This document shows positions 6,010 through 35,639 of a DNA stretch of 42,897 nt, in pieces. Position 1 is the first letter of the stretch; each line of letters begins with the position of its first letter. The DNA is from a phage. The position numbers and the translations under genes are program-made. The stretch is from the NCBI GenBank assembly GCA_029955215.1, contig GCA_029955215.1_4351.1; one strand, given 5' to 3'. The notes beneath the pieces are model-generated. The model ran no database searches. It was not told where the DNA came from and saw only the letters and a list, made by a program, of their open reading frames with translations.

Positions 6010-6227
6010 GAAGAGTATGTAAAGAGACGTTGCGCCAACAGATAGACCGCCTGGCGTCTAAAGGTAATCCAGAGTTCGGGCTTGGTATGACACTGAACGA
6101 AGAGTTCCAGTTAGAGGCATATCGGATGTTACTAGCGAAACTTAGTATGTGCAAAAACTGTAACCATGAACTAACGGTGGAGGATATCGAATACGACCAA
6201 TGTGGTTTTTGCGGGTGTGATTTATGA
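6006..6227 (+). CDS. zinc-finger-like small protein (CxxC...CxxC, 73 aa)
   Basis: CKNCNH...CGFCGC cysteine pairs; ATG overlaps upstream stop. Confidence 0.45.
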   Translation: MRRVCKETLRQQIDRLASKGNPEFGLGMTLNEEFQLEAYRMLLAKLSMCKNCNHELTVEDIEYDQCGFCGCDL

Positions 6228-6469
6228 TTACCAGCATTCCGAACCTGATTAAAGAATTTGGCACTATGGCGGAGACATGCCGACAAACCGGCATCAATGA
6301 AATGACCATCGCCAAGTACCGCAACGACGTTAACTGTGAGCGCCACGTAATTTATAACAACCGTCTCATGACGCACGTTAAGACAAGCCCGGTGCTATTC
6401 ACGCGCCGAGGTATCACTAAAACAGAGCAACGTATCGCTAAAGAGGAGAGCGGGGAATGCGACTACTAA
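6224..6469 (+). CDS. hypothetical protein, possible HTH DNA-binding (81 aa)
   Basis: ATG overlaps upstream stop; segment ETCRQTGINEMTIAKYR looks helix-turn-helix-like. Confidence 0.4.
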   Translation: MITSIPNLIKEFGTMAETCRQTGINEMTIAKYRNDVNCERHVIYNNRLMTHVKTSPVLFTRRGITKTEQRIAKEESGECDY

Positions 6470-6562
6470 TCATCCCTAACGCCTGGGCTATCGCTGTAGC
6501 TAACGACCATTACGGCGGCGATGGTAAAAGAGCACCGCGACACGGCCTATATAACTGATACA

Positions 6563-6586
6563 AGCCCTCTACGGAGGGCTTTTCTG
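6563..6586 (+). terminator. rho-independent terminator
   Basis: agccctc-tacg-gagggct followed by tttctg. Confidence 0.6.
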
Positions 6587-6679
6587 TACATCCTGCCCAA
6601 TCCCCTTATATAATCCCTTTAGACGCGTAGGGCGCGTCTGGTGCGCTCTGATGGTCAGACGCATATGCAAGGGGATTCT

Positions 6680-7225
6680 ATGAAGCTGAAACTTAAGCAG
6701 CCATCGCCAGAGGTGGTGCAAGCTGCACATGAAGAAGCTGTTAGCGCAAACCGTCGCCGTAAACGACCGCGCGGTAAACAGAGCCTTTATCAATCATCCC
6801 GTAATTCCGCTGCGTTGTGGGACCCGGACTATTGCGACGAATTGATTCGTTTCTTCGACCGCACGTCATGGGAACTTGTGCCTACGTCTAAAGGTGACGA
6901 ACGCCCGCTGATTCAGGATAAACCCCCGTCACTTGCCCGCTTCGCCTTACACATCGGCGTCACTATCCCGATTATTAAGCTATGGCTGCGTGAGATTCCC
7001 GCATTTGCAGAAGCCTATGAAACCGCACAGGCGCTGGAAGAGGCATACTTCACCGAGACAGGGGCCGCGGGTATCTCTGCTACATTTGCTGCCGCGAAGC
7101 TGGGCCTCAGTAAAGAGAAACCGGTTGAATCCACCGAAGAAACAGCACCGACTGAGATTATTTTCAGTGTTGCGGAGCCTGTAGGTAAAATCGTAACAAC
7201 GAATATGGGCGAGGTAGAGGAATGA
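6680..7225 (+). CDS. terS: terminase small subunit (putative)
   Basis: Immediately upstream of and overlapping terL; basic N-terminus, HTH-like segment; ATG 6680 after aagggga. Confidence 0.6.
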   Translation: MKLKLKQPSPEVVQAAHEEAVSANRRRKRPRGKQSLYQSSRNSAALWDPDYCDELIRFFDRTSWELVPTSKGDERPLIQDKPPSLARFALHIGVTIPIIKLWLREIPAFAEAYETAQALEEAYFTETGAAGISATFAAAKLGLSKEKPVESTEETAPTEIIFSVAEPVGKIVTTNMGEVEE

Positions 7226-8472
7226 GTATCCATCTATCCGCCCCGCAGGCGCTGTTCCTGAATTGCGATAACAAATATAAGGCCTATGTAGGCGGCTTCG
7301 GCAGCGGCAAAACATTTGTTGGCTGCCTAGACCTGCTTACGTTTATGCTTAAGCATCCCGGTACACGCCTTGGCTACTTTGGACCAACATATCCGGCTAT
7401 CCGAGACATCTTCTATCCGACATTCGAGGAAGCGGCTAACCTGCTAGGCCTCGATGTGCTTGTTAAATCTGGGGACAAAGAGGTAGTGGTTACCCGTGGT
7501 AAGACAGTGCTCGGGACAGTTATCTGCCGGTCGATGGATAACCCAGGCTCGATAGTCGGCTTCAAAATCGCGGCTGCGGTCGTGGATGAGCTCGATGTAT
7601 TGAGTCGCGAGAAAGCTGAGCTGGCGTGGAACAAAATCGTAGCCCGTATGCGTCTGGTCATCCCGGGCGTAATCAACCACATCTCCGTAACCACGACACC
7701 GGAAGGATTCAAGTTCGTCTACGCCAAGTTCAAAGAGAACCCGACGCCGAGCTACTCTATGGTGCAGGCATCAACTCATGAGAACGCCAGATTCCTGCCG
7801 CCGGATTATATTAGCTCGCTGACAGAGACTTACCCGGCGCAGTTGATTAACGCATATCTTAACGGTGAGTTCGTCAACCTGACATCCGGCAGCGTGTATT
7901 ACGCATACGACCGCCGTAAGCATCGCAGCAAAGAGACAATTCAGCCTGGCGACACGCTGTACATCGGGCAGGACTTCAACGTTACGAAGAATGCCAGCGC
8001 CGTGTATGTGCAACGTAAAGACGGCTGGCACGCGGTAGCGGAACTGAAAGGACTGTTCGATACGCCGGACACCGTGCGCGTAATTACTGAGAAGTGGAAG
8101 TCACAAGGCCACCGCATCGTCGTTTACCCTGACGCCAGCGGCAAGAACCGCAAGACCAACTCGGCGTCAATCTCTGATATTGCATTACTCCAGCAGGCCG
8201 GGTTCGATGTTCGCGCTAAATCCGCCAACCCCCCGGTTAAAGACCGCGTTTTAGCCGTGAATACCGCGTTGGAAAAAGGTAAGCTGTGGGTTAACGACCA
8301 CTTATGCCCTGAGATAGCCAAGACGCTGGAGCAGCAGGCATACGACGATAATGGAGAGCCAGCTAAAGACGGCATCATTGACCATATGGCCGATGCTCTC
8401 GGTTATCCTGTAGTTTACGAGATGCCGGTGGTTAAACCAGTAATCAACATCCCGGTGACTTTTGCACTTTAA
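7222..8472 (+). CDS. terL: terminase large subunit
   Basis: Walker A GGFGSGKT, Walker B VVDELD; 416 aa; precedes portal. Confidence 0.9.
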   Translation: MSIHLSAPQALFLNCDNKYKAYVGGFGSGKTFVGCLDLLTFMLKHPGTRLGYFGPTYPAIRDIFYPTFEEAANLLGLDVLVKSGDKEVVVTRGKTVLGTVICRSMDNPGSIVGFKIAAAVVDELDVLSREKAELAWNKIVARMRLVIPGVINHISVTTTPEGFKFVYAKFKENPTPSYSMVQASTHENARFLPPDYISSLTETYPAQLINAYLNGEFVNLTSGSVYYAYDRRKHRSKETIQPGDTLYIGQDFNVTKNASAVYVQRKDGWHAVAELKGLFDTPDTVRVITEKWKSQGHRIVVYPDASGKNRKTNSASISDIALLQQAGFDVRAKSANPPVKDRVLAVNTALEKGKLWVNDHLCPEIAKTLEQQAYDDNGEPAKDGIIDHMADALGYPVVYEMPVVKPVINIPVTFAL

Positions 8473-9960: not shown

Positions 9961-11012
9961 GCAAGCTATCGCAGATGATTATCAGCCATCAAATATGGCT
10001 ACAGAGACTAGGAACGCAAACAGCGTCGCTGTCCGTCCCCTTCGTCAATAAGATGCGTGCGGAGGTGCGCGACGCGGTGCTTAAGTTCGGTGACGACGCG
10101 CGCACAGTGAAGAAGCTGAATAAATTGCTGACAAGCCTGGATGGCGTGCTGGATGACGTAACCGGCGATTGGAAGAGCACGATAGAGAAGAGCCTTCGCG
10201 AGATTGCCGACTACGAGAATAAGTGGTTTATCCATACGCTGGAGGCCAACACGAAGCCGAAAACGTTCATTACCGGACCTACGGCAGAAGAACTGTGGTC
10301 GCGTATCAAGTTCGCACCACTGGCGATGGGTAACTCACCTGTCAGCGTTATGGACCTGATGTCAGGCTGGGCGCAGACCGAGCGTAACCGCCTTGTGCGC
10401 GGCATACAGACCGGCTTTGTGCAGGGGCAGACAACCCGCCAAATTGTCTCTGCCGTTGTGGGTCCCGGTGGCCTGGCCGATATCTCTGAGCGCAACGTAA
10501 TGACGGTAGTCCGAACAGCAGTGAGCCACGTATCGAACACGGCGCGAGACTCTGTGTACGACAGCAACAGCGATATTGTGAGCAAATATCAGTGGGTATC
10601 TACGCTCGACAGCCGTACTTCGACTGTATGTAAGTCGCGCGACGGCCAGAAATATGACATAGGTAGAGGGCCGATGCCCCCCGCCCATCCGAACTGCCGC
10701 AGTACCACTATCCCGGTAATCGAAGATGACTTCCTGGACTTTCTCGACGAGGGGGCTAAGCGGGCGGCTAAGGGTGCGGACGGCGGTACTCAGGTAAGCG
10801 CAGACACCACCTATTACGAGTTCCTGAAGCAACAACCGGCATGGTTTCAGGACCAGGCGCTCGGCCCTGTTCGCGGTAAGATTTTCCGCGGCAGCGGTAT
10901 ATCGCCGGAAGAGTTTCGCGTAATATCTGTAGATGGTTTCGGGAATCCACTCACGCTTAAGCAGATGGCGGAACTCGATAAACGTGTTGCTGATTATCTG
11001 AAAGGGGAATAA
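9957..11012 (+). CDS. head morphogenesis protein (Mu gpF / SPP1 gp7-like)
   Basis: Position after portal; 351 aa; sequence character of the Mu F family. Confidence 0.65.
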   Translation: MSKLSQMIISHQIWLQRLGTQTASLSVPFVNKMRAEVRDAVLKFGDDARTVKKLNKLLTSLDGVLDDVTGDWKSTIEKSLREIADYENKWFIHTLEANTKPKTFITGPTAEELWSRIKFAPLAMGNSPVSVMDLMSGWAQTERNRLVRGIQTGFVQGQTTRQIVSAVVGPGGLADISERNVMTVVRTAVSHVSNTARDSVYDSNSDIVSKYQWVSTLDSRTSTVCKSRDGQKYDIGRGPMPPAHPNCRSTTIPVIEDDFLDFLDEGAKRAAKGADGGTQVSADTTYYEFLKQQPAWFQDQALGPVRGKIFRGSGISPEEFRVISVDGFGNPLTLKQMAELDKRVADYLKGE

Positions 11013-11473
11013 TGATGGGCTTTTTCAAAGTAACTGATGTACCGTCGCGCCGCGTAGTCCAGTACGCCCGCGTGTCAGGCTCTGGTGAGAACGTGGTGTT
11101 TATTGAAGATGAAAGTGTACTCGGTACACCAGTAGACGATATGCCGTTTGCAGATAAAACTGGTATTGCGCTACCGGCGGCGGGCATGCTTTACGAGATT
11201 CCGTATCTGGCTGATGCTGGTGACGTATATTTCTCTGTGCAACCGAAAGACACGGAACTTGCAGACGGCAGCGCAACTATCGCTGTAGAGGTTAAGGCCG
11301 GCAAAGCGCCATATGCTCTGACCTGGTACAAAGACGGTAAGGAAGTGGTCAACGCCCCGGAAGAGGCTTTGTCCCTGACGGTTAATGCGGCTGGTGAATA
11401 CTTCGTTAAAGTTACCGATGCCAATGGAGTGGAGGCGGTTAGCAAAGCGGCGAAGGTTACTAAGCCAGAATGA
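11012..11473 (+). CDS. Ig-like-domain protein (153 aa), possible capsid-associated
   Basis: C-terminal YALTWYKDGKEV...GEYFVKVTDANG resembles Ig-like fold repeats. Confidence 0.45.
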   Translation: MMGFFKVTDVPSRRVVQYARVSGSGENVVFIEDESVLGTPVDDMPFADKTGIALPAAGMLYEIPYLADAGDVYFSVQPKDTELADGSATIAVEVKAGKAPYALTWYKDGKEVVNAPEEALSLTVNAAGEYFVKVTDANGVEAVSKAAKVTKPE

Positions 11474-17257: not shown

Positions 17258-17670
17258 TGGGCTACTTTGAGGACTTAACCAAAGCGTTTGATGTGCCGTT
17301 GGTGGCCTTCGGGACCGCAAACGGCATCAGGGTTGCGCTTGAAAATATCGACGCGCCGACGTCAACCGATACGCCGTATCTGGCGAGTTACATGTTGCTG
17401 GCAGATACGGAACAGGCGGATTTGTTCTTCACCGAGCAACGCTCAGGTGTTTATCAGGTCAACATTAACTACGCGTCGGTGAAAGGTAGCGCGCCAATCA
17501 ATAAAATGGCAGACTTACTTAACACGGTGTTTAAAGCAGGTAAGTCATTTTCACGTAACGACATCTGCGCCGAGGTTCAATCAGTTAGCCTGGGGCCGCT
17601 GATTGTAGAAAACGGATGGGCCAAAAGACCATTGTCAATTAACTTTATTGCATTCACCAAGAGGCTGTGA
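17257..17670 (+). CDS. tail completion / neck protein (putative)
   Basis: ATG 17257 overlapping upstream TGA; position before major tail protein. Confidence 0.45.
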   Translation: MGYFEDLTKAFDVPLVAFGTANGIRVALENIDAPTSTDTPYLASYMLLADTEQADLFFTEQRSGVYQVNINYASVKGSAPINKMADLLNTVFKAGKSFSRNDICAEVQSVSLGPLIVENGWAKRPLSINFIAFTKRL

Positions 17671-17672
17671 AT

Positions 17673-18839
17673 ATGGCTACAACTCCTTTTAAGGGCGCGA
17701 ATACCGCGCAATTCTATGTGGCGGAAGTGACCCCGGGCGTAACACCAAGTAACCCGGTATGGTCGCCGTTGCGTAGCACTGGCGGCGTTCCTGCCGTAAC
17801 CCGCGATGCGCTGACTTCCAACGAACTGGACGGCAGCCGTGAAACTACATCCATCCGCACTGGCAATAAGCAGGTAAGCGGGGAGTATGCCATCGAACTT
17901 AGCTCTCGTAGTCAGGATGATTTCCTGGCTGGCGCGATGACTTCTACGTGGCAGGATGGGGTAGAGATTACGGGTGCCGAAATTACTGTCGCCCCCGCAG
18001 GTAAAACATTCACCCGCGCTGCCGGTAGCTTCATTACTGACGGTGTAGAAGTTGGTGACCTTATTGCGTTCACCGACTTAACCGGCGACAACGCAAAACC
18101 GTTTATCGTGACCGCGGTTTCTGCTCTTGTAGTTACGGGTGCGGGCATTCAGCACACGCTGACAGCAGAGACTGTAACCACCGACGCTAAAACTGGCGAT
18201 AAACTGGAAACCGGTAACGCATGTAAGACGTTCTCCATCCTGACATGGTTCAAAGGACAGTGCGGGAACCCTGACGCGTACATGTTGACCAAAGGCGTGG
18301 AAATCTCCGGTTTCACCATTGAACAGGCCGTAAACGCGATGGTGACAGGCAGCTTCCCGTTCATCGGCCTGAGTCAGGAGATTCTTACCACGCCGCCGTC
18401 TGGCTCTGATTTCTCTCAGGTGACGTTCACGGACGAGCCGTTCTCTTCTGTAGATGTGTCTGTGTTCGACGGTTCTACGCCGTTGCGTTGCGATACTCTC
18501 ACTATCACCAACGATAACGGTGCTTCCGCGCAGTTCGAACTCGGCAACAGTAGCGTCGCGTTCGTGGAACGGGGGCGCGCAGCTAACACCTTTTCCATCT
18601 CCGGTAAGCTGTACGACATGACGATGATTCAGAAGTTTATCAACGAGCAGCAGGTAGAGATTAACTCTATTCTGGCGGGGGTAAACGGGGCTATGTCTTT
18701 CAGTTTGAAACGTGCGGAACTTACGGCGGTTACGCCTGAGATTGGCGGACCTGAGTCAATCACTCAGTCCATTGAAGGCCAGGCTACTGGCAACCAGTAC
18801 CAGTCGTCTATCGTGATTCAACGTATCACCTACGCATAA
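17673..18839 (+). CDS. major tail protein
   Basis: About 389 aa, position before chaperone/tape-measure genes, followed by strong terminator. Confidence 0.7.
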   Translation: MATTPFKGANTAQFYVAEVTPGVTPSNPVWSPLRSTGGVPAVTRDALTSNELDGSRETTSIRTGNKQVSGEYAIELSSRSQDDFLAGAMTSTWQDGVEITGAEITVAPAGKTFTRAAGSFITDGVEVGDLIAFTDLTGDNAKPFIVTAVSALVVTGAGIQHTLTAETVTTDAKTGDKLETGNACKTFSILTWFKGQCGNPDAYMLTKGVEISGFTIEQAVNAMVTGSFPFIGLSQEILTTPPSGSDFSQVTFTDEPFSSVDVSVFDGSTPLRCDTLTITNDNGASAQFELGNSSVAFVERGRAANTFSISGKLYDMTMIQKFINEQQVEINSILAGVNGAMSFSLKRAELTAVTPEIGGPESITQSIEGQATGNQYQSSIVIQRITYA

Positions 18840-18843
18840 AACT

Positions 18844-18868
18844 AAGGCCCCGAAAGGGGCCTTTTTCT
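18844..18868. terminator. bidirectional rho-independent terminator
   Basis: aaggcccc-gaaa-ggggcctt followed by tttctt; convergent gene ends on both sides. Confidence 0.8.
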
Positions 18869-18870
18869 TA

Positions 18871-19044
18871 CTAATTTTTGAAGGGCATTTCATAGAAATT
18901 AGTTAACTGGCCTCGGTCACTTCGTTCTGTCATTTCTTTAGAGGCCTCTTCCTTACTACCGACGGCATAAATATCAACCCACTCGTCCCATTCTTCGTCG
19001 TATACACGGATTACATATATTGTTTTCATAATATTTTCGCTCAT
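18871..19044 (-). CDS. hypothetical small protein (about 57 aa)
   Basis: Last gene of minus-strand cassette; start chosen at internal ATG; overlaps 18974-19267 in another frame. Confidence 0.35.
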   Translation of the reverse strand: MSENIMKTIYVIRVYDEEWDEWVDIYAVGSKEEASKEMTERSDRGQLTNFYEMPFKN

Positions 19045-19267
19045 CAATATTATCCCTGTACTCCCGTAACTTCTCCAGACTCTCAATTGCTTCCGCTAAG
19101 TCGGTTCCTGTGTCCTTGTGCCCCCGCAAGCCCATACACAATAGCTTCTTCAATGCGTGCTGTAACGCCGGGTCGCGGATGTCGAAGGCACGTAGCACGT
19201 CGTAAACGTCTACTGTCATAGTGCTGCCGTGAGTGTTTGTCATTGTGCGGTTGTATTTTGAAGTCAT
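18974..19267 (-). CDS. hypothetical protein (97 aa)
   Basis: ORF downstream of HNH gene in minus-strand cassette. Confidence 0.45.
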   Translation of the reverse strand: MTSKYNRTMTNTHGSTMTVDVYDVLRAFDIRDPALQHALKKLLCMGLRGHKDTGTDLAEAIESLEKLREYRDNIDERKYYENNICNPCIRRRMGRVG

Positions 19268-19280
19268 AAATCAATCTCCC

Positions 19281-19751
19281 CTACTCATGGTTTTCATGAA
19301 AACCGTATTTACTCTCGGCGGCTTTACGCGCGGCAACCGCTACATCAAAATCGTCGTAAAGCCCTAAATGCACTTGTTTGTAGTTAACTTTTATAAACGC
19401 GCGCCACTTACCCGCGGCTTTGTGGAAACTTACACCTGTAGCCCCGGATTTATTTATCTTTCTCATAGTTTTATTTTTACTGCCCCCTGTATTGTCGGTG
19501 GCGCGTAGATTTTCTATTCTATTGTCTAGCCTGTTATGGTTTATGTGGTCTATTTGAGTTTTCCTGTCTAAGTCGCATTTATTATAAAGACACCATGCTA
19601 TGCGGTGGACATACACTGTTTTACCACCCATACCGCAGCACAGATAGCCTCTTACACCAACCGTACCAACCTCAGCACCAGTAGATATCCTGGTAACCTG
19701 CCCCGTCTCAGGGCAGTATTTAAATTGTTTTGAAACATCAAGATACTTCAT
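19281..19751 (-). CDS. HNH homing endonuclease with AP2-type DNA-binding domain
   Basis: H-N-H region IDHINHNRLDNRIENL; C-terminal GVSFHKAAGKWRAFIKVNYKQVHLGLYDDFDVAVAARKAAE resembles an AP2 domain; AT-rich gene. Confidence 0.8.
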   Translation of the reverse strand: MKYLDVSKQFKYCPETGQVTRISTGAEVGTVGVRGYLCCGMGGKTVYVHRIAWCLYNKCDLDRKTQIDHINHNRLDNRIENLRATDNTGGSKNKTMRKINKSGATGVSFHKAAGKWRAFIKVNYKQVHLGLYDDFDVAVAARKAAESKYGFHENHE

Positions 19752-20878
19752 CTTAGCATCTCCGGTGAGATTGAAAGCCTACCTACTTCCCCGAACTCTG
19801 AACTATAGGTTATGACATTAGCGGACCTCTTAGACATCCACCCGCCGCGAGAAGCATATGCATCTTTCGCCGCGAGAGTGCGATGTTGTTCCACTACCAT
19901 ATTCCTACTTTCTACAATCTTTTGATGGTGGAGATGCCCGACATGTGCGTAACTGTACTCGCTTTCGCCAAATGCTTTTCTGAACTTAGCTATCATAATG
20001 GGTTCGACCACCTCAAACCGGCATTTATGCCCGTGTGTAAAGAACAGTGTCGTTTTACCGTGTTGCACCATCTTGTAAACATCCGGCGACGTATCGACGA
20101 ACACACGCGGCTCATTGTCGTACAGCGTACTGAACATCTCAGCCAACCAAATCATTCCGCTTTCGTCGTGGTTCCCTTGCACGATAAGCAAGCGAACATT
20201 TTTATGCTTAACCAGCGCCATACCAACAACACGGCGTACCATACGAATCATGTAGCGGACTAGTTTCTGGTAGCGCGTGTCCGCATCAAGAACATGACCG
20301 CTCGCTGGCGTAACGGCATCCAGACTATCGAAGTGTGCGAAGTCCCCGAGCAGATTAATGACTCCTGTTCCTGCATCTGGCGCTTTCTGGAATGCCGCAT
20401 CGAACCATCGGGAGAACAGGTCTTCAGCAATCTTCATATCCCAGTCGTCGCCGCTCTCGTCGGCCCAGGCCAGCATGCCGAGATGGAAATCAGATACCGT
20501 GTAAAGATTGAGTAGTTTGTCGTCACGTTTGGCTCGAGTCGCTTTAACAGGCGCAACTGGGGTAATCTCTGACTTCATGCCTTCAACCACGGCTTTCATC
20601 AACTCAACCTGACGTTCGGCATCGGTGTCGGTCTTAACCCATTGCAACTTAGTGTTGCCGAACTCGTCTACCAGTGACGACGTTCCTTTAATCTTGTAGC
20701 CGTCTGGCACAAGGTGACTAACATCACGACCATGACCTACGCCTTTCTTCGCCAGCTTCGCTTTACGGATACGAATAACGCGGTCTGAGATGCCGTATTT
20801 ACGGGCAATGTCGATATTCTTCATCCCGACGTTCAATTCTTCCTGTAACTGTTCGTCGGTTATTTTCTTCTGGGCCAT
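19748..20878 (-). CDS. HTH domain fused to calcineurin-like metallophosphoesterase (SbcD/Mre11-like motifs)
   Basis: N-terminal DIARKYGISDRVIRIRKAK; motifs SDFHLG, GDFAHFD, GNHDE, THGH, GHLHH. Confidence 0.7.
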   Translation of the reverse strand: MAQKKITDEQLQEELNVGMKNIDIARKYGISDRVIRIRKAKLAKKGVGHGRDVSHLVPDGYKIKGTSSLVDEFGNTKLQWVKTDTDAERQVELMKAVVEGMKSEITPVAPVKATRAKRDDKLLNLYTVSDFHLGMLAWADESGDDWDMKIAEDLFSRWFDAAFQKAPDAGTGVINLLGDFAHFDSLDAVTPASGHVLDADTRYQKLVRYMIRMVRRVVGMALVKHKNVRLLIVQGNHDESGMIWLAEMFSTLYDNEPRVFVDTSPDVYKMVQHGKTTLFFTHGHKCRFEVVEPIMIAKFRKAFGESEYSYAHVGHLHHQKIVESRNMVVEQHRTLAAKDAYASRGGWMSKRSANVITYSSEFGEVGRLSISPEMLR

Positions 20879-20916
20879 GCTTACTTCCTCGTGTTTAGGA
20901 TTTGTCCTATACTAGC

Positions 20917-21108
20917 TCACTTCTCGTTAACATTCGAGTTGCACGCCCAGATTAAAATAAATACCCACGGCAGCAGAACCCAACCAAGAAACAGGTTAGC
21001 CATGAATATCGCCAACTTCGCTTTATGGTTACGGAAATATGCAACCAGGAAAGGCGCGAAATAAGCGAGCAGTGCAAACAGAATTAAGGAAACTGGTAAA
21101 CTTGACAT
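20917..21108 (-). CDS. small two-TM membrane protein, superinfection-immunity (Imm)-like
   Basis: YFAPFLVAYFRNH...LGWVLLPWVFILIWA; start at second ATG with aagggg RBS (ORF track start 21123). Confidence 0.5.
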   Translation of the reverse strand: MSSLPVSLILFALLAYFAPFLVAYFRNHKAKLAIFMANLFLGWVLLPWVFILIWACNSNVNEK

Positions 21109-21138
21109 TTTAAACCCCTTCATTGTTGGTGTAAGTGA

Positions 21139-21167
21139 ATAGTACCCTATTATATTGGGGTGTGCAA
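21139..21167 (-). promoter_or_regulatory. sigma70-like promoter, class I (TTGCAC-N17-TACTAT) driving minus-strand cassette
   Basis: Minus-strand reading ttgcac-accccaatataataggg-tactat. Confidence 0.6.
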
Positions 21168-21275
21168 GTAATGTGATAGAATAATTTTGCGCCTAGTGTC
21201 GCACACGAAAAGCGGGTGGTTCCCGTCTGGCGCATTTATCGATAACCTGTAACCTCTTAACCAAAGGATTAAAGA

Positions 21276-21695
21276 ATGAAACTTTCTGATTTTTATTTCG
21301 AAGAGAAAGCACTGGTAGGCAAGAAAATGCCGATTCTGCTGCCGAATGGCGAAGACTCCGGCGAGTGGCTTAATGTTGTAAGCCCTGATGCGGATGCCGC
21401 CGTTAAAGCGGGGCGTGCTTTCATTATCGCGTACCGTCGCGGACTGGCGCGTTTTGAAGAACTGGAAAAAACCGCTAAAGCCTCCGGCGACTATACAGAA
21501 TATAACCTGGCGATTAATGAACTGGCGGAAGACCTCAACCGGCAACTCGCGGCTGAAGTCGTAAACGGCTGGAGCTTCGACGACGAGCCTTTCTCTAAGG
21601 AAGCGTTTAACAAATTGCTCGACCAGTTCAAAGGGCTTGGAACCCAGGTAGCCGCGTTCCATAACGCTGAGCGCAAAGCATTACAGGAAAAGTAG
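21276..21695 (+). CDS. tail assembly chaperone (putative)
   Basis: Position immediately upstream of tape measure; acidic 139-aa protein. Confidence 0.5.
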   Translation: MKLSDFYFEEKALVGKKMPILLPNGEDSGEWLNVVSPDADAAVKAGRAFIIAYRRGLARFEELEKTAKASGDYTEYNLAINELAEDLNRQLAAEVVNGWSFDDEPFSKEAFNKLLDQFKGLGTQVAAFHNAERKALQEK

Positions 21696-21727: not shown

Positions 21728-22060
21728 GTGGATAAGCATAAAATCAGAGAGTTTGATTCTATAGCTGACGGACATGAACAGGCGCTTATCGCGATGGGTG
21801 TAATCGATAAGAAAAAACGTGCAGCGCGACGGGGTGGGCCAGAATGCCCGCCCCTTTTCATATCCACCTTTGAGACGTATTGCGACATTAAGTTTACGCG
21901 ACACGTGCGCGAGGACGCTGTAGTATTGTTTGCAAGAGAATCCGTTACGTGGCAAGACCTGAAAGCCTATCTCGACGTTACACAAAAACAGCTTAGCCTG
22001 TTCGAGATAGACATTATCATGGGCTTAGAAGCAATCTTTGAAGGTAGAAATAATGGCTGA
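21728..22060 (+). CDS. hypothetical protein upstream of tape measure (start uncertain)
   Basis: GTG-initiated ORF; no frameshift connection to 21276-21695 found. Confidence 0.35.
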   Translation: MDKHKIREFDSIADGHEQALIAMGVIDKKKRAARRGGPECPPLFISTFETYCDIKFTRHVREDAVVLFARESVTWQDLKAYLDVTQKQLSLFEIDIIMGLEAIFEGRNNG

Positions 22061-33461: not shown

Positions 33462-35639
33462 TCACTTAGCGTACCGGTACATTTCGCTGCCTTCTGCTAC
33501 AAGAGGGAATCCCTCAGCCCATTCAGGTAATTCGCACATCAATCGTTCGAGTTCAGCCACATTGTATTCAGGCGAATCTGGCGTCTCGCAGATAATTTCA
33601 TCGTGTACATGAAGTACAATCGGGTAGCCGTTTGCTTCAACGTTAAGTAGCGCATTAGCCAGCAAGTCACGGCACAGTGCCTGGGTACAGTTTTCCACCA
33701 GTTTCCCGGAGTACGTGTACTGGAAGCCCCACTGACGAGTTAACTGGTTTTCACCTTGGTACTTGATGCGCACGTTAGTAGAAACTTTCCCGTCTTCGTC
33801 CGTCTCTTTCGATACACTTAAACCTACGCCAGGGTAGGACATTACGCGGCCTGACGGCAACGTCATGCGCAACCACCAACCAGCTACCTTGTTGCCGTTG
33901 TTATCTGTTTCTACGTTGCGTGAAAACTTAACGCCACGAGGACCAGCGGTGAACTCTTTCCCTGGATTACGTATTGCCGCCATAGCTGCGTCTTCGATAT
34001 CACGCCAGAAAGCTACAGTCTCAGGGTGCGACTCGCGCCACATGCGCTTGATAGCGTCACATGTACGCCAGACTTTCTTATCCAGAATATATGATGGTCG
34101 GTCATCTTTTTCACCAGGACGCGGTGGCCGCTTGGCTTCCTGAATACGCGCCCACTCGTACCCACGTGCGGTAGCGGCCCAGATGTGGTCAGGGAAAGTA
34201 CCGTCCATTGTTTTAGCCATATCAACCAGGTCAAGGCCGAGGTTCTTGGCGAACTGAACGAAAGCCCCTACGCCGCCAGCGTAGCCGAGTCCCAACTCGC
34301 AAGCTTTGCCTATCTGGCGAAGGTCTTTACGTTCTTTCTTAATGTAATCCGGTTCCAGGCCAAACATCTTGCCCGCCGTTACGCAATAAATATCCAGCCC
34401 GGCCCGGAAAGTATCGAGCGCGGCTTCTTCGCCCGCCAGCCATGCCAGCCCGCGACCTTCAACGTTAGAGTAATCTGCAACAACAAACTTGTGCCCTGCT
34501 TCCGGGATAATGCAGCTGCGCACCGTAGATGCCGTTAGCTTGGCTACATCAAACCGACGATGCGCACGTCCTTTCAGCAACGCAGAAATCCCTTTATCCA
34601 GCTCATCGTCATGATAGTACCCGCGGGCCAGGTTCTGTGGCTGGAAGCCTTTACCGGCGAATCGTAGCGTACGTTTAGCCCCGCCGTACTGGATGCAACC
34701 GCGGCGGCGGTCGTCAGAAGAACGACCCAGCAATAACGGTGTGTATTTCGTTGACGCGGTGGACGCCGCTCCGAGGCGCATTTCGACAATATCACGGGCA
34801 TCGTCGGGTAAATCCTCGTCAGCCAGCAGGTCAAACAACGTTGCTTTTTGCGCGTTATGAATGCGGTTCGCAGGGGCCAGTTCCTGCAATGCCGGTAGAA
34901 AGTCTTTTCCGGTTAATGAACAGCCGAATTTACGTTGCGATTCCTCCTGCAACTCCCCCTTATGCCGTGTTATGGCTTCAATAGCGGCTTCTGCCAGCGC
35001 AATATCAACCTTGAACCCGCGGTCGTTGATTAACTGGTCCAGTTCCAGTACGCGGTCCTCGAACTCAGAGTTGCCCCACGACGGCATTTTTTGAAACACT
35101 TCACGCATCGAAGTGATATCACTAATAGCGTACTTGATGAATAACGCCCACTCCTCCGGGTGCGTCTCAGACGTATAGCGGCGTATTTTGTAATTCTTCG
35201 GGGTCGGCTTGGTGAATCTCTTTATTAACGCCTTACCGCGTTTGTCCTTGGCGTTCTCTGCAGATACTTCCAGCACTTCACACAAAACAGCCAATTTCCC
35301 CGGCAGCGCGTGGCGAAAAGCACAGGTCATTGTATCTATAACGCTGCTTACAGGTATGTCATAGCCCCAGCAGTTGCGGATAACTAAGCGGTCAAACATA
35401 TTGAAGTTATGACCTACAATCTTAATATCCCCTCTCATTGCCTTACGCAGGCCAACTTTCAGGTCGCGCGGCATATCGCTGCCGTCTGTGCAGTCCCAGC
35501 AACGCACCTCGCCGTCGTCGAACGCGTAGGTGCATATCATAATTTCTGTAGATGGGTGTTCGGCGTAGGCATAACTGCCGACAACCGTTATGTCTAATTC
35601 ACAAAAAGTTTCTGTATCAAGATAAAGTAATTCGTTCAT
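33462..35639 (-). CDS. DNA polymerase, family A with 3'-5' exonuclease domain
   Basis: Exo I motif DTETF; motif B RQIGKACELGLGYAGG; motif C VLHVHDEI; 725 aa. Confidence 0.9.
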   Translation of the reverse strand: MNELLYLDTETFCELDITVVGSYAYAEHPSTEIMICTYAFDDGEVRCWDCTDGSDMPRDLKVGLRKAMRGDIKIVGHNFNMFDRLVIRNCWGYDIPVSSVIDTMTCAFRHALPGKLAVLCEVLEVSAENAKDKRGKALIKRFTKPTPKNYKIRRYTSETHPEEWALFIKYAISDITSMREVFQKMPSWGNSEFEDRVLELDQLINDRGFKVDIALAEAAIEAITRHKGELQEESQRKFGCSLTGKDFLPALQELAPANRIHNAQKATLFDLLADEDLPDDARDIVEMRLGAASTASTKYTPLLLGRSSDDRRRGCIQYGGAKRTLRFAGKGFQPQNLARGYYHDDELDKGISALLKGRAHRRFDVAKLTASTVRSCIIPEAGHKFVVADYSNVEGRGLAWLAGEEAALDTFRAGLDIYCVTAGKMFGLEPDYIKKERKDLRQIGKACELGLGYAGGVGAFVQFAKNLGLDLVDMAKTMDGTFPDHIWAATARGYEWARIQEAKRPPRPGEKDDRPSYILDKKVWRTCDAIKRMWRESHPETVAFWRDIEDAAMAAIRNPGKEFTAGPRGVKFSRNVETDNNGNKVAGWWLRMTLPSGRVMSYPGVGLSVSKETDEDGKVSTNVRIKYQGENQLTRQWGFQYTYSGKLVENCTQALCRDLLANALLNVEANGYPIVLHVHDEIICETPDSPEYNVAELERLMCELPEWAEGFPLVAEGSEMYRYAK

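Follow-up and report, generated by a model that had tools for sequence, protein, structure and literature searches.

Within the tail module of a siphophage genome lies a gene whose product joins a helix-turn-helix (HTH) domain to a calcineurin-like metallophosphoesterase (MPE) domain, and the question that this locus raises is what substrate such an enzyme acts on and what use the phage makes of it. The DNA analysed here (the window) is the whole stretch of 42,897 nucleotides of contig GCA_029955215.1_4351.1 (NCBI GenBank assembly GCA_029955215.1), which is an essentially complete Kagunavirus (Guernseyvirinae) genome. Taking the evidence together, we lean, with some reserve, towards a stand-alone metal-dependent DNA nuclease, in which the HTH stands in place of the SbcC/Rad50 partner.

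Conservation and fold of the catalytic domain

The HTH-MPE gene occupies positions 19748-20878 on the minus strand and encodes 376 amino acids, followed by the stop codon. It starts with ATG, and a GAGGAAG ribosome-binding site lies 6 nt upstream. An earlier inspection of the letters by a model that ran no database searches (hereafter, the sequence-only reading) had given the correct coordinates, leaving the strand unstated, and had listed an N-terminal HTH string and five MPE motifs. All of these were found in the order in which they had been reported, the HTH string DIARKYGISDRVIRIRKAK corresponding to residues 23-41 of the protein. The parts of the gene referred to below are as follows.

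19748-20878, minus strand: complete open reading frame (ORF), HTH plus hairpin/helix plus metallophosphoesterase, PHROG 704
20735-20878, minus strand: three-helix LuxR/FixJ-like HTH, residues 1-48 (helices 8-16, 21-28 and 32-44)
20567-20707, minus strand: conserved beta-hairpin (61-70, 76-85) and helix (87-102), residues 58-104
19751-20524, minus strand: calcineurin-like metallophosphoesterase catalytic domain, residues 119-376
20477-20494, minus strand: motif I, SDFHLG, residues 129-134, with metal ligands D130 and H132
20327-20347, minus strand: motif II, GDFAHFD, residues 178-184, with ligand D179
20273-20326, minus strand: family-specific conserved loop SLDAVTPASGHVLDADTR between motifs II and III
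20162-20176, minus strand: motif III, GNHDE, residues 235-239, with N236 and H237
20027-20038, minus strand: motif IV, THGH, residues 281-284, with H282 and H284
19925-19939, minus strand: motif V, GHLHH, residues 314-318, with H315 and H317

The protein matched PHROG 704, labelled 'DNA repair exonuclease', along almost its entire length (E = 1.7e-164, 548.6 bits, residues 3-375 against positions 1-389 of a 390-position profile). A tblastn search matched 2,039 of 50,697 phage records, about 4% of the collection searched, with 80% or more of the length covered in 1,958 records, in phages of Escherichia, Klebsiella, Salmonella, Vibrio, Campylobacter, Flavobacterium, Rhodobacter and other hosts. 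When 1.84 billion representative sequences were scanned with HMMER, 4,647 clusters at 50% identity were retrieved at E ≤ 1e-3 and 1,151 at E ≤ 1e-30, most of the family clusters being 370-420 amino acids long. An identical protein (100%) is encoded in GenBank MH051334 and one of 94% identity in Bas74; homologues include Bas74_0022 (XPK43186.1), gp13 of vB_EcoS-Ro145clw (AUX83755.1) and gp62 of JMPW2 (YP_009594192.1). The PHROG 704 homologues share the same three-module architecture and, in Kagunavirus genomes, the same cassette. The sequence-only reading had not recognised the architecture as that of a characterised phage protein. As far as experiment is concerned this holds, since no experimental study was found; an unusual architecture, on the other hand, is not what emerged, because about 2,000 phage genomes carry a member of PHROG 704, to which the protein belongs. 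The architecture is already known from a long-catalogued and very abundant phage family, and within its lineage the gene forms part of the ordinary, conserved gene set.

The metal ligands are strongly conserved in this family. Among representatives at 50% identity (n = 138), D130, H132, D179, N236, H237 and H282 are conserved in 100%, H317 in 99% and H315 in 95%. The full ligand set (DHDNHHHH) is found in 138 of 150 family representatives, and in six of the 150 H315 is replaced by Asp. Across the family representatives G134 of motif I and H182 of motif II are each conserved in 96% and H284 of motif IV in 90%; D184, R258, D339 and R351 are further positions conserved family-wide. Since all eight metal ligands are 95-100% conserved, catalysis is clearly under selection. 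The motifs noticed by the sequence-only reading are conserved active-site residues, and not a chance motif match. A further conserved element is the loop SLDAVTPASGHVLDADTR that follows motif II, with the consensus TPxSGHxLDxDxR (T190 99%, L197 94%, D198 97%, D200 88%, R202 94%), which might serve as a substrate-binding element.

General MPE models recognise the protein poorly. Both Pfam models fall below their gathering thresholds (Metallophos_2, 25.6 against 27 bits; Metallophos, 19.4 against 21.5), which is why some database records read 'hypothetical protein'. Within the family, only 20-25 of 124 members reach E ≤ 0.01 with PF00149/PF12850, as expected of a divergent subfamily.

The fold was assessed on an AlphaFold2 model built on 124 diverse homologues (mean pLDDT 90.5, pTM 0.78). 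The alpha/beta domain comprising residues 119-376 is compact (pLDDT 91-99); a linker of low pLDDT is present at residues 45-60, and a second linker separates helix 87-102 from the catalytic domain. Compared to the PDB with Foldseek, the model gave an MPE fold probability of 1.00 against dozens of solved MPEs and 138 matches at E ≤ 1e-3. These matches were metallophosphoesterases only, and none was close (10-16% identity, TM about 0.3-0.45 on the query). The best were Thermotoga maritima Mre11 (5.8e-8), Rv0805 (6.9e-8) and the PolD subunit DP1 (7e-8 to 3e-7), which amounts to a tie; YfcE, GpdQ (1.8e-6), purple acid phosphatases, sphingomyelinases, LpxH and Vps29 followed. In BFVD, many uncharacterised phage proteins have the same fold. 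The metallophosphoesterase assignment made from the motifs is backed both by the conservation of the ligands and by the modelled structure.

Sequence profiles were less decisive on the branch of the superfamily. A search of the PDB with the single sequence gave no match. A 7-sequence profile reached Mre11 at E = 0.22 only, and a 124-sequence profile reached T. maritima Mre11/SbcD at E = 0.021-0.041, a marginal value and for motifs I-II only. In this alignment SDWHLG and GDLLH of Mre11 stand against tDaHlG and GDflH of the family, column for column, so that the resemblance of the first motif, SDFHLG, to the SbcD/Mre11 signature, already pointed out from the letters, is found again in the alignment with T. 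maritima SDWHLG. The other MPE in the 124-sequence profile search was the 'Nuclease MPE' of Pseudomonas putida, a weak match (E = 0.57). No SbcD/Mre11 model of NCBIfam or Pfam matched the protein.

Mre11/SbcD of T. maritima (PDB 2q8u, 4o24, 6x1y) is nevertheless the best PDB match both by structure and by sequence profile. The two proteins have in common the (S/T)D-x-HLG of motif I, the nuclease-specific histidine in GD-x-x-H of motif II and the binuclear ligand set. They differ in that identity is 13-14%, the TM score is about 0.42-0.47 and the sequence match is confined to motifs I-II; moreover, the phage protein carries an N-terminal HTH, the hairpin-helix unit and the additional TPxSGHxLDxDxR loop, whereas Mre11 has C-terminal capping and Rad50-binding domains. 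Archaeal PolD DP1, a 3'-5' proofreading exonuclease, is also among the top structural neighbours (11-12% identity), and because of this similarity some homologues are labelled 'DNA polymerase II small subunit'. DP1, however, has an OB-fold and not an HTH; in the phage of the window the DNA polymerase is of family A, and a PolD large subunit is absent.

The remaining database labels for the family are 'DNA repair exonuclease', 'calcineurin-like phosphoesterase superfamily domain protein' ('calcineurin-like phosphoesterase' for the nearest relative), 'metallophosphoesterase', 'winged helix-turn-helix domain-containing protein' and 'sigma70-r4-2 domain-containing protein'. The name 'DNA repair exonuclease' is a computational transfer by homology. 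Literature searches on the family (PHROG 704, Kagunavirus and Drexlerviridae MPE) retrieved no functional study.

Some database entries cover the protein in part. PHROGs 20703 and 20762 correspond to its N-terminal half (residues 1-195) and to its C-terminal part (260-374), respectively, and short proteins of Jk06, phiJLA23, Salmonella phage 36 and RDJL Phi 1, seen among the BFVD matches, also match only parts of it. In some genomes, then, an insertion, a frameshift or a sequencing error has split or interrupted the gene.

The N-terminal HTH and hairpin-helix module

With the protein taken alone, HTH models gave weak matches at its N-terminus. Pfam GerE scored 14.2 bits (E = 0.033), below its cut-off of 23.5, and NCBIfam FixJ aligned with residues 9-45 or so at E = 0.016, below the curated threshold. 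The 124-sequence profile, run against the PDB, matched the HTH domains of GerE (E = 0.039), RhlR, DesR and LysR-type proteins. The signal becomes much stronger in the family: among 124 members, HTH_1 was matched in 24, HTH_8 in 17 and Sigma70_r4_2 in 12 (best 1.5e-9), in addition to HTH_50, HTH_28, HTH_23 and GerE (best 2.4e-8). Residues 1-118 modelled separately gave a pLDDT of 87 and no significant global neighbour in the PDB (overall Foldseek E > 0.1). The best local superposition of the HTH was on FixJ (38 residues, 1.2 Å, 39% identity), followed by ComA, EvgA, DosR and LiaR. The N-terminal HTH proposed by the sequence-only reading is therefore confirmed, as family members match HTH models down to 1.5e-9 and the modelled helices superpose on FixJ/LuxR-type domains. 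The basic third helix, RVIRIRKAKLAKK, is probably the recognition helix, judging from the model. LuxR/FixJ/NarL (GerE) domains usually have four helices, whereas this one has three, and no receiver or ligand-binding domain accompanies it.

The HTH is followed by a hairpin-helix unit with the pattern KGxSTL...G...QWVKT. In the N-terminal alignment W80 is invariant; across the family G74 is conserved in 95%, W80 in 94% and K82 in at least 90%. No counterpart of this unit was found among solved structures. At least 60 residues precede the hairpin tryptophan in 144 of 150 representatives, and given this frequency of the N-terminal module the HTH fusion is the norm. Members from Campylobacter myophages keep the hairpin-helix unit and lack the HTH. 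Between near-identical relatives, constraint on the HTH is on a par with that on the enzyme domain (33% vs. 29% polymorphic sites), while family-wide the HTH diverges much faster (19% vs. 44% identity to the query).

These features bear on the possibility, which we regard as distinctly improbable, that the protein is a transcription factor, whose HTH binds promoters and switches on late genes or autoregulates, with the MPE domain acting as sensor, effector or second function. The matches to Sigma70_r4_2 and GerE would suit such a protein, and so would a weak match to PHROG 836, 'late transcriptional activator' (E = 0.0084), and the family-wide divergence of the HTH, which is expected if DNA specificity changes between phages; yet it is the catalytic ligands that are near-invariant, while the HTH is dispensable in the Campylobacter phages and in a few representatives. 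As for its position, the gene is the last or nearly the last of the early block, ahead of holin/endolysin and terminase genes, in T1-like phages, in a Microbulbifer prophage and in a marine contig, and lambda carries ninI and Q roughly at the corresponding map position. In the window and in one other contig, however, it lies inside the tail module and not upstream of late genes. Furthermore, no inverted repeat or palindrome that could be an autoregulatory operator was found at 20850-21300, around the promoter candidate of the cassette, and no precedent for an activator fused to an MPE emerged from our searches.

The proposed DNA nuclease function and other possible phosphoesterase functions

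According to the mechanism that we propose, the HTH-MPE protein would act on DNA as a two-metal (Mn2+/Mg2+-type) phosphodiesterase and would belong to the nuclease-like branch of the calcineurin-like superfamily. D130, H132, D179, N236, H237, H282, H315 and H317 form the canonical binuclear centre in residues 119-376. H182 and H237 would correspond to two histidines that enzymes of the Mre11 type and of the P. putida MPE type need for nucleic-acid cleavage. In the P. putida MPE, two histidines are essential for DNA cleavage and not for the hydrolysis of bis-p-nitrophenyl phosphate (PMC7826289). The HTH, through the flexible linker, may supply the DNA affinity that Mre11/SbcD obtains from Rad50/SbcC, because the phage encodes no ATPase of this type: no such ORF was found in the 42.9-kb window, nor was an adjoining gene of this kind found in ten other loci. 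Expression would be independent of the late structural operon, as suggested by a promoter-like site of its own in a minus-strand cassette inside the tail module. The enzyme may either degrade or nick host DNA, with host shut-off, nucleotide salvage and silencing of defences as possible outcomes, or trim ends and secondary structures in replicating phage DNA. Since a PD-(D/E)XK exonuclease and an annealing protein are already present in the phage, a role other than general recombination is mildly favoured.

The sequence-only reading had offered three functions: a targeted nuclease, an enzyme degrading nucleotide signals and a self-regulating phosphatase. The first fits the evidence best, considering the Mre11 profile match, the 96% conservation of H182 and the Mre11 and DP1 structural neighbours. 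The other two found no support, as there is no PADLOC match, no operator-like palindrome and no PPP-type motif.

The nuclease reading is also consistent with the neighbours of the gene in other lineages, which are genes of DNA and nucleotide metabolism. In T1-like phages the gene comes after those for a helicase, a VRR-NUC protein and Dam methylase, and is followed by either an HNH gene or a polynucleotide kinase (PNK) and a deoxynucleoside monophosphate (dNMP) kinase, and then by the lysis cassette. In an N4-like roseophage it follows dCTP deaminase and thymidylate synthase, and in a Campylobacter myophage an ATP-dependent DNA ligase and RusA. In Vibrio phage K137, HNH, endolysin and head genes come after it. 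In Microbulbifer sp. CP174300.1 (locus positions 10001-11218) it is part of an apparently intact prophage of lambdoid type, where NinG precedes it and a MazG-like gene follows, with holin and terminase genes further downstream (order Erf, YqaJ, SSB, NinG, HTH-MPE, MazG-like, holin, terminase, portal); virulent phages are therefore not the only carriers of the family. In other contigs the gene was seen after replication genes and before holin/terminase genes, inside a tail module, or, in a marine one, among ThyX, PhoH, DNA polymerase III beta, HNH and ribonucleotide reductase genes.

Some of these arrangements would be expected of an end-healing phosphoesterase, which removes a 3'-phosphate or a 2',3'-cyclic phosphate from broken RNA or DNA ends and cooperates with a PNK, a ligase or both against damage by anticodon nucleases or defence nucleases. 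We consider this explanation unlikely, though less so than a transcription factor. The PNK and dNMP kinase genes directly follow the MPE gene in Klebsiella T1-like (Webervirus-type) phages (in one locus, at 6172-7238), the same cassette of the Kagunavirus-like PQ474795.1 holds a '3'-phosphatase, 5'-polynucleotide kinase' together with a transcriptional regulator, and the DNA ligase gene precedes the MPE gene in the Campylobacter phage. In the window, however, there is neither PNK nor ligase, and the association is confined to some clades. An MPE-type precedent exists, as 2',3'-cyclic phosphodiesterase activity is established for Clostridium thermocellum Pnkp (CthPnkp) and lambda phosphatase (PMC2190708, PMC3675462), but motif II of the present protein lacks the GDxxDRG arginine signature, and no protein of the CthPnkp/lambda-phosphatase branch appeared in the PDB profile search. 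Moreover, an HTH is an odd appendage for an enzyme that heals RNA ends.

The same absence of signature applies to a protein Ser/Thr/Tyr phosphatase of the lambda NinI type, which would reprogram host or phage phosphoproteins. The protein belongs to the same superfamily as lambda phosphatase, and in the Microbulbifer prophage the gene has a nin-region position, after NinG, comparable to that of ninI on the lambda map. The PPP signatures GDxxDRG and GNHE are nevertheless absent, being replaced by GDFAHFD and GNHD, and no PPP-family match was obtained by sequence in the PDB, NCBIfam or Pfam. A phosphatase would also leave the HTH fusion unexplained, and we hold this to be the least probable of the explanations considered, with hardly any chance of being correct.

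The structural neighbours raise one more explanation, to which we give little credence, less than to a transcription factor: an anti-defence phosphodiesterase that either hydrolyses cyclic or other nucleotide-derived signals of immune systems such as CBASS, Pycsar, type III CRISPR and Thoeris, or depletes a nucleotide pool, with an incidental or regulatory HTH. Rv0805, a class III cyclic-nucleotide phosphodiesterase (6.9e-8), and GpdQ (1.8e-6) rank among the top structural neighbours; at the sequence level, however, the PDB searches gave no match to a cyclic-nucleotide phosphodiesterase, and both the HTH fusion, which is nearly universal, and the Mre11-like histidine of motif II speak for a nucleic acid. 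The cassette has an accessory look and adjoins a superinfection-immunity gene, and phage genes in accessory positions are often counter-defence genes; against this, the gene is a conserved resident of several virulent phage lineages and not a patchy accessory. No PADLOC-DB family was matched by the protein (0 families at E ≤ 1), and the phage signal-degrading enzymes Acb1 and Apyc1 have other folds.

Stand-alone phage MPEs that act on DNA offer the nearest functional comparison for the nuclease reading. Gp48 of the cluster A mycobacteriophage A10ZJ24 is expressed early, acts as a DNase in vitro and breaks down the genomic DNA of the host (PMC12287305). Replication of phage DNA requires the homologous gp47 of Bxb1, a protein with exonuclease activity of limited extent, whose top structural neighbours are Mre11 and DP1 (PMC11795197); gp47 is also the integrase directionality factor. 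Like the HTH-MPE protein, the cluster A MPE is stand-alone, without an SbcC partner, and its published predicted structure has Mre11 and PolD DP1 as top neighbours. It is, however, about 255 amino acids long with motif I at residue 10, and thus lacks the HTH and the hairpin-helix module. An hhalign comparison of the two gave a probability of 7.7%, over the generic motifs III-V only. By tblastn, gp47 finds phages of Actinobacteria, Streptomyces and Pseudomonas, and the HTH-MPE protein phages of Enterobacteria, Vibrio, Campylobacter and other hosts.

A second comparison is the T5 pre-early protein A1, a predicted metallophosphatase described as involved in host DNA degradation (bioRxiv 10.64898/2026.04.02.716235). 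It is described as resembling double-strand-break repair nucleases and polymerase proofreading subunits, and it shares its structural neighbours with the HTH-MPE protein. A1 has 556 amino acids, and its DNA binding is provided in trans by the separate protein A2, together with which it acts, as compared to the fused HTH here; hhalign gave a probability of 16.7%, over 19 residues around (G/S)NHD...WL only. As profile comparisons showed no specific relationship to Gp48/gp47 or to T5 A1, our claim is that the HTH-MPE protein works like these enzymes, and not that it is a member of their families.

A bolder version of the nuclease reading, for which the chances appear rather low, makes the HTH-MPE protein the as yet unassigned nuclease behind an early attack on the host chromosome by T1-like phages (Drexlerviridae), Jersey/Kagunavirus-like phages and many marine siphophages. 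If so, the enzyme would contribute to host shut-off, nucleotide supply and the silencing of inducible defences, and the fast-evolving HTH would guide it to certain sequences or structures in DNA, or hold it away from the phage DNA. Beside T5 A1 and Gp48 of mycobacteriophages, it would be the third independent phage MPE system for host-DNA degradation, and the one with the widest distribution. The papers examined on retrons, Druantia, Metis and PUA-Cal-HAD do not mention the HTH-MPE gene, whether as a trigger or as a site of escape; where the Metis and PUA-Cal-HAD preprints describe escape mutations related to host-DNA degradation, these lie in the T-even gene denA. The family includes model and therapy-candidate phages of E. 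coli, Salmonella and Klebsiella (T1-like, Jersey-like, Kagunavirus and Webervirus-type). An answer on its function would re-annotate thousands of phage genomes, and could show what such phages do with host DNA, or how they process their own, when no SbcC/Rad50 partner is present.

The minus-strand cassette and the surrounding genome

Over the 10 kb tested, the window is about 98% identical to Escherichia phages vB_EcoS-Ro145clw and Ro145c2YLVW. It encodes terminase, head and tail proteins, a tailspike, a helicase, a family A DNA polymerase, a gp2.5-like SSB, a PD-(D/E)XK (DUF2800) exonuclease and a primase-helicase. The minus-strand cassette with the HTH-MPE gene sits between the major tail protein gene (17667-18839, plus strand) and the genes for the tail chaperones and tape measure (21276 onward, plus strand). 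Its order is promoter candidate, Imm_superinfect gene, HTH-MPE gene, HNH gene, one or two small ORFs and terminator. Besides the HTH-MPE gene, it contains the following features.

21149-21177, minus strand: sigma-70-like promoter candidate, ATCACA-17-TATAAT, 10/12
20917-21123, minus strand: 68-amino-acid membrane protein of superinfection-immunity type, Pfam Imm_superinfect (E = 9.3e-13), phrog_1039
19281-19751, minus strand: HNH_3/AP2 homing endonuclease, whose ATG overlaps the stop codon of the MPE gene (ATGA)
18844-18863, no strand assigned: bidirectional GC-rich hairpin terminator (predicted), closing both the cassette and the upstream plus-strand tail gene

Matches to the promoter pattern in this region are as frequent as expected from shuffled sequence, so that the promoter candidate is weak evidence. 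The Imm_superinfect gene, the first of the cassette, is conserved beside the MPE gene in Kagunavirus genomes. At the other end, the hairpin consists of a perfect 8-bp stem, AAGGCCCC-GAAA-GGGGCCTT, with T-runs on both strands, at the point where plus- and minus-strand genes converge, and from these features it is probably a bidirectional intrinsic terminator.

The GC content of the MPE gene (0.48-0.52) equals that of the genome, and a recent horizontal acquisition of the gene as a moron is for this reason unsupported. In the stretch of the HNH gene and the small ORFs it is 0.44-0.46. The HNH gene was also considered as an obligate partner of the MPE gene and rejected, since it is absent from the Bas74 locus (where the MPE is 94% identical) and from most Kagunavirus relatives, has a lower GC content and is replaced by an unrelated type in the marine contig. 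The downstream HNH proteins of the window, of T1-like JMPW2 and of Vibrio phage K137 are homologous (32-35% identity). We read the HNH gene as that of a homing endonuclease and an optional insertion, for which the conserved MPE gene is a landing site and not a partner; the 3' flank of the MPE gene looks like a recurrent homing site.

Between the HNH gene and the terminator there are small ORFs at 18974-19267 and 18871-19086 (both minus strand), where the nearest relatives carry different small genes (231 and 489 nt). For the 97-amino-acid ORF, matches were confined to the C-terminal third of PHROG 2452 (positions 150-224 of 235) and to comparable parts of longer families. This stretch is a variable region, and the 97-amino-acid ORF may be a remnant.

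On the other side of the cassette, the adjacent plus-strand ORFs at 21276-21695 and 21728-22060 match positions 1-138 and 152-259, respectively, of the 259 positions of one PHROG for a tail assembly chaperone, 15027. From the sequence, this is the pattern expected for a pair produced by programmed frameshifting of the G/GT type upstream of the tape measure gene.

In the family A DNA polymerase (725 amino acids, 33462-35639, minus strand), Pfam sees only DNA_pol_A at residues 370-470, and residues 444-537 match PHROG 93, 'endonuclease' (E = 1.1e-13). The latter stretch could represent either an insertion or a part of the polymerase that has diverged.

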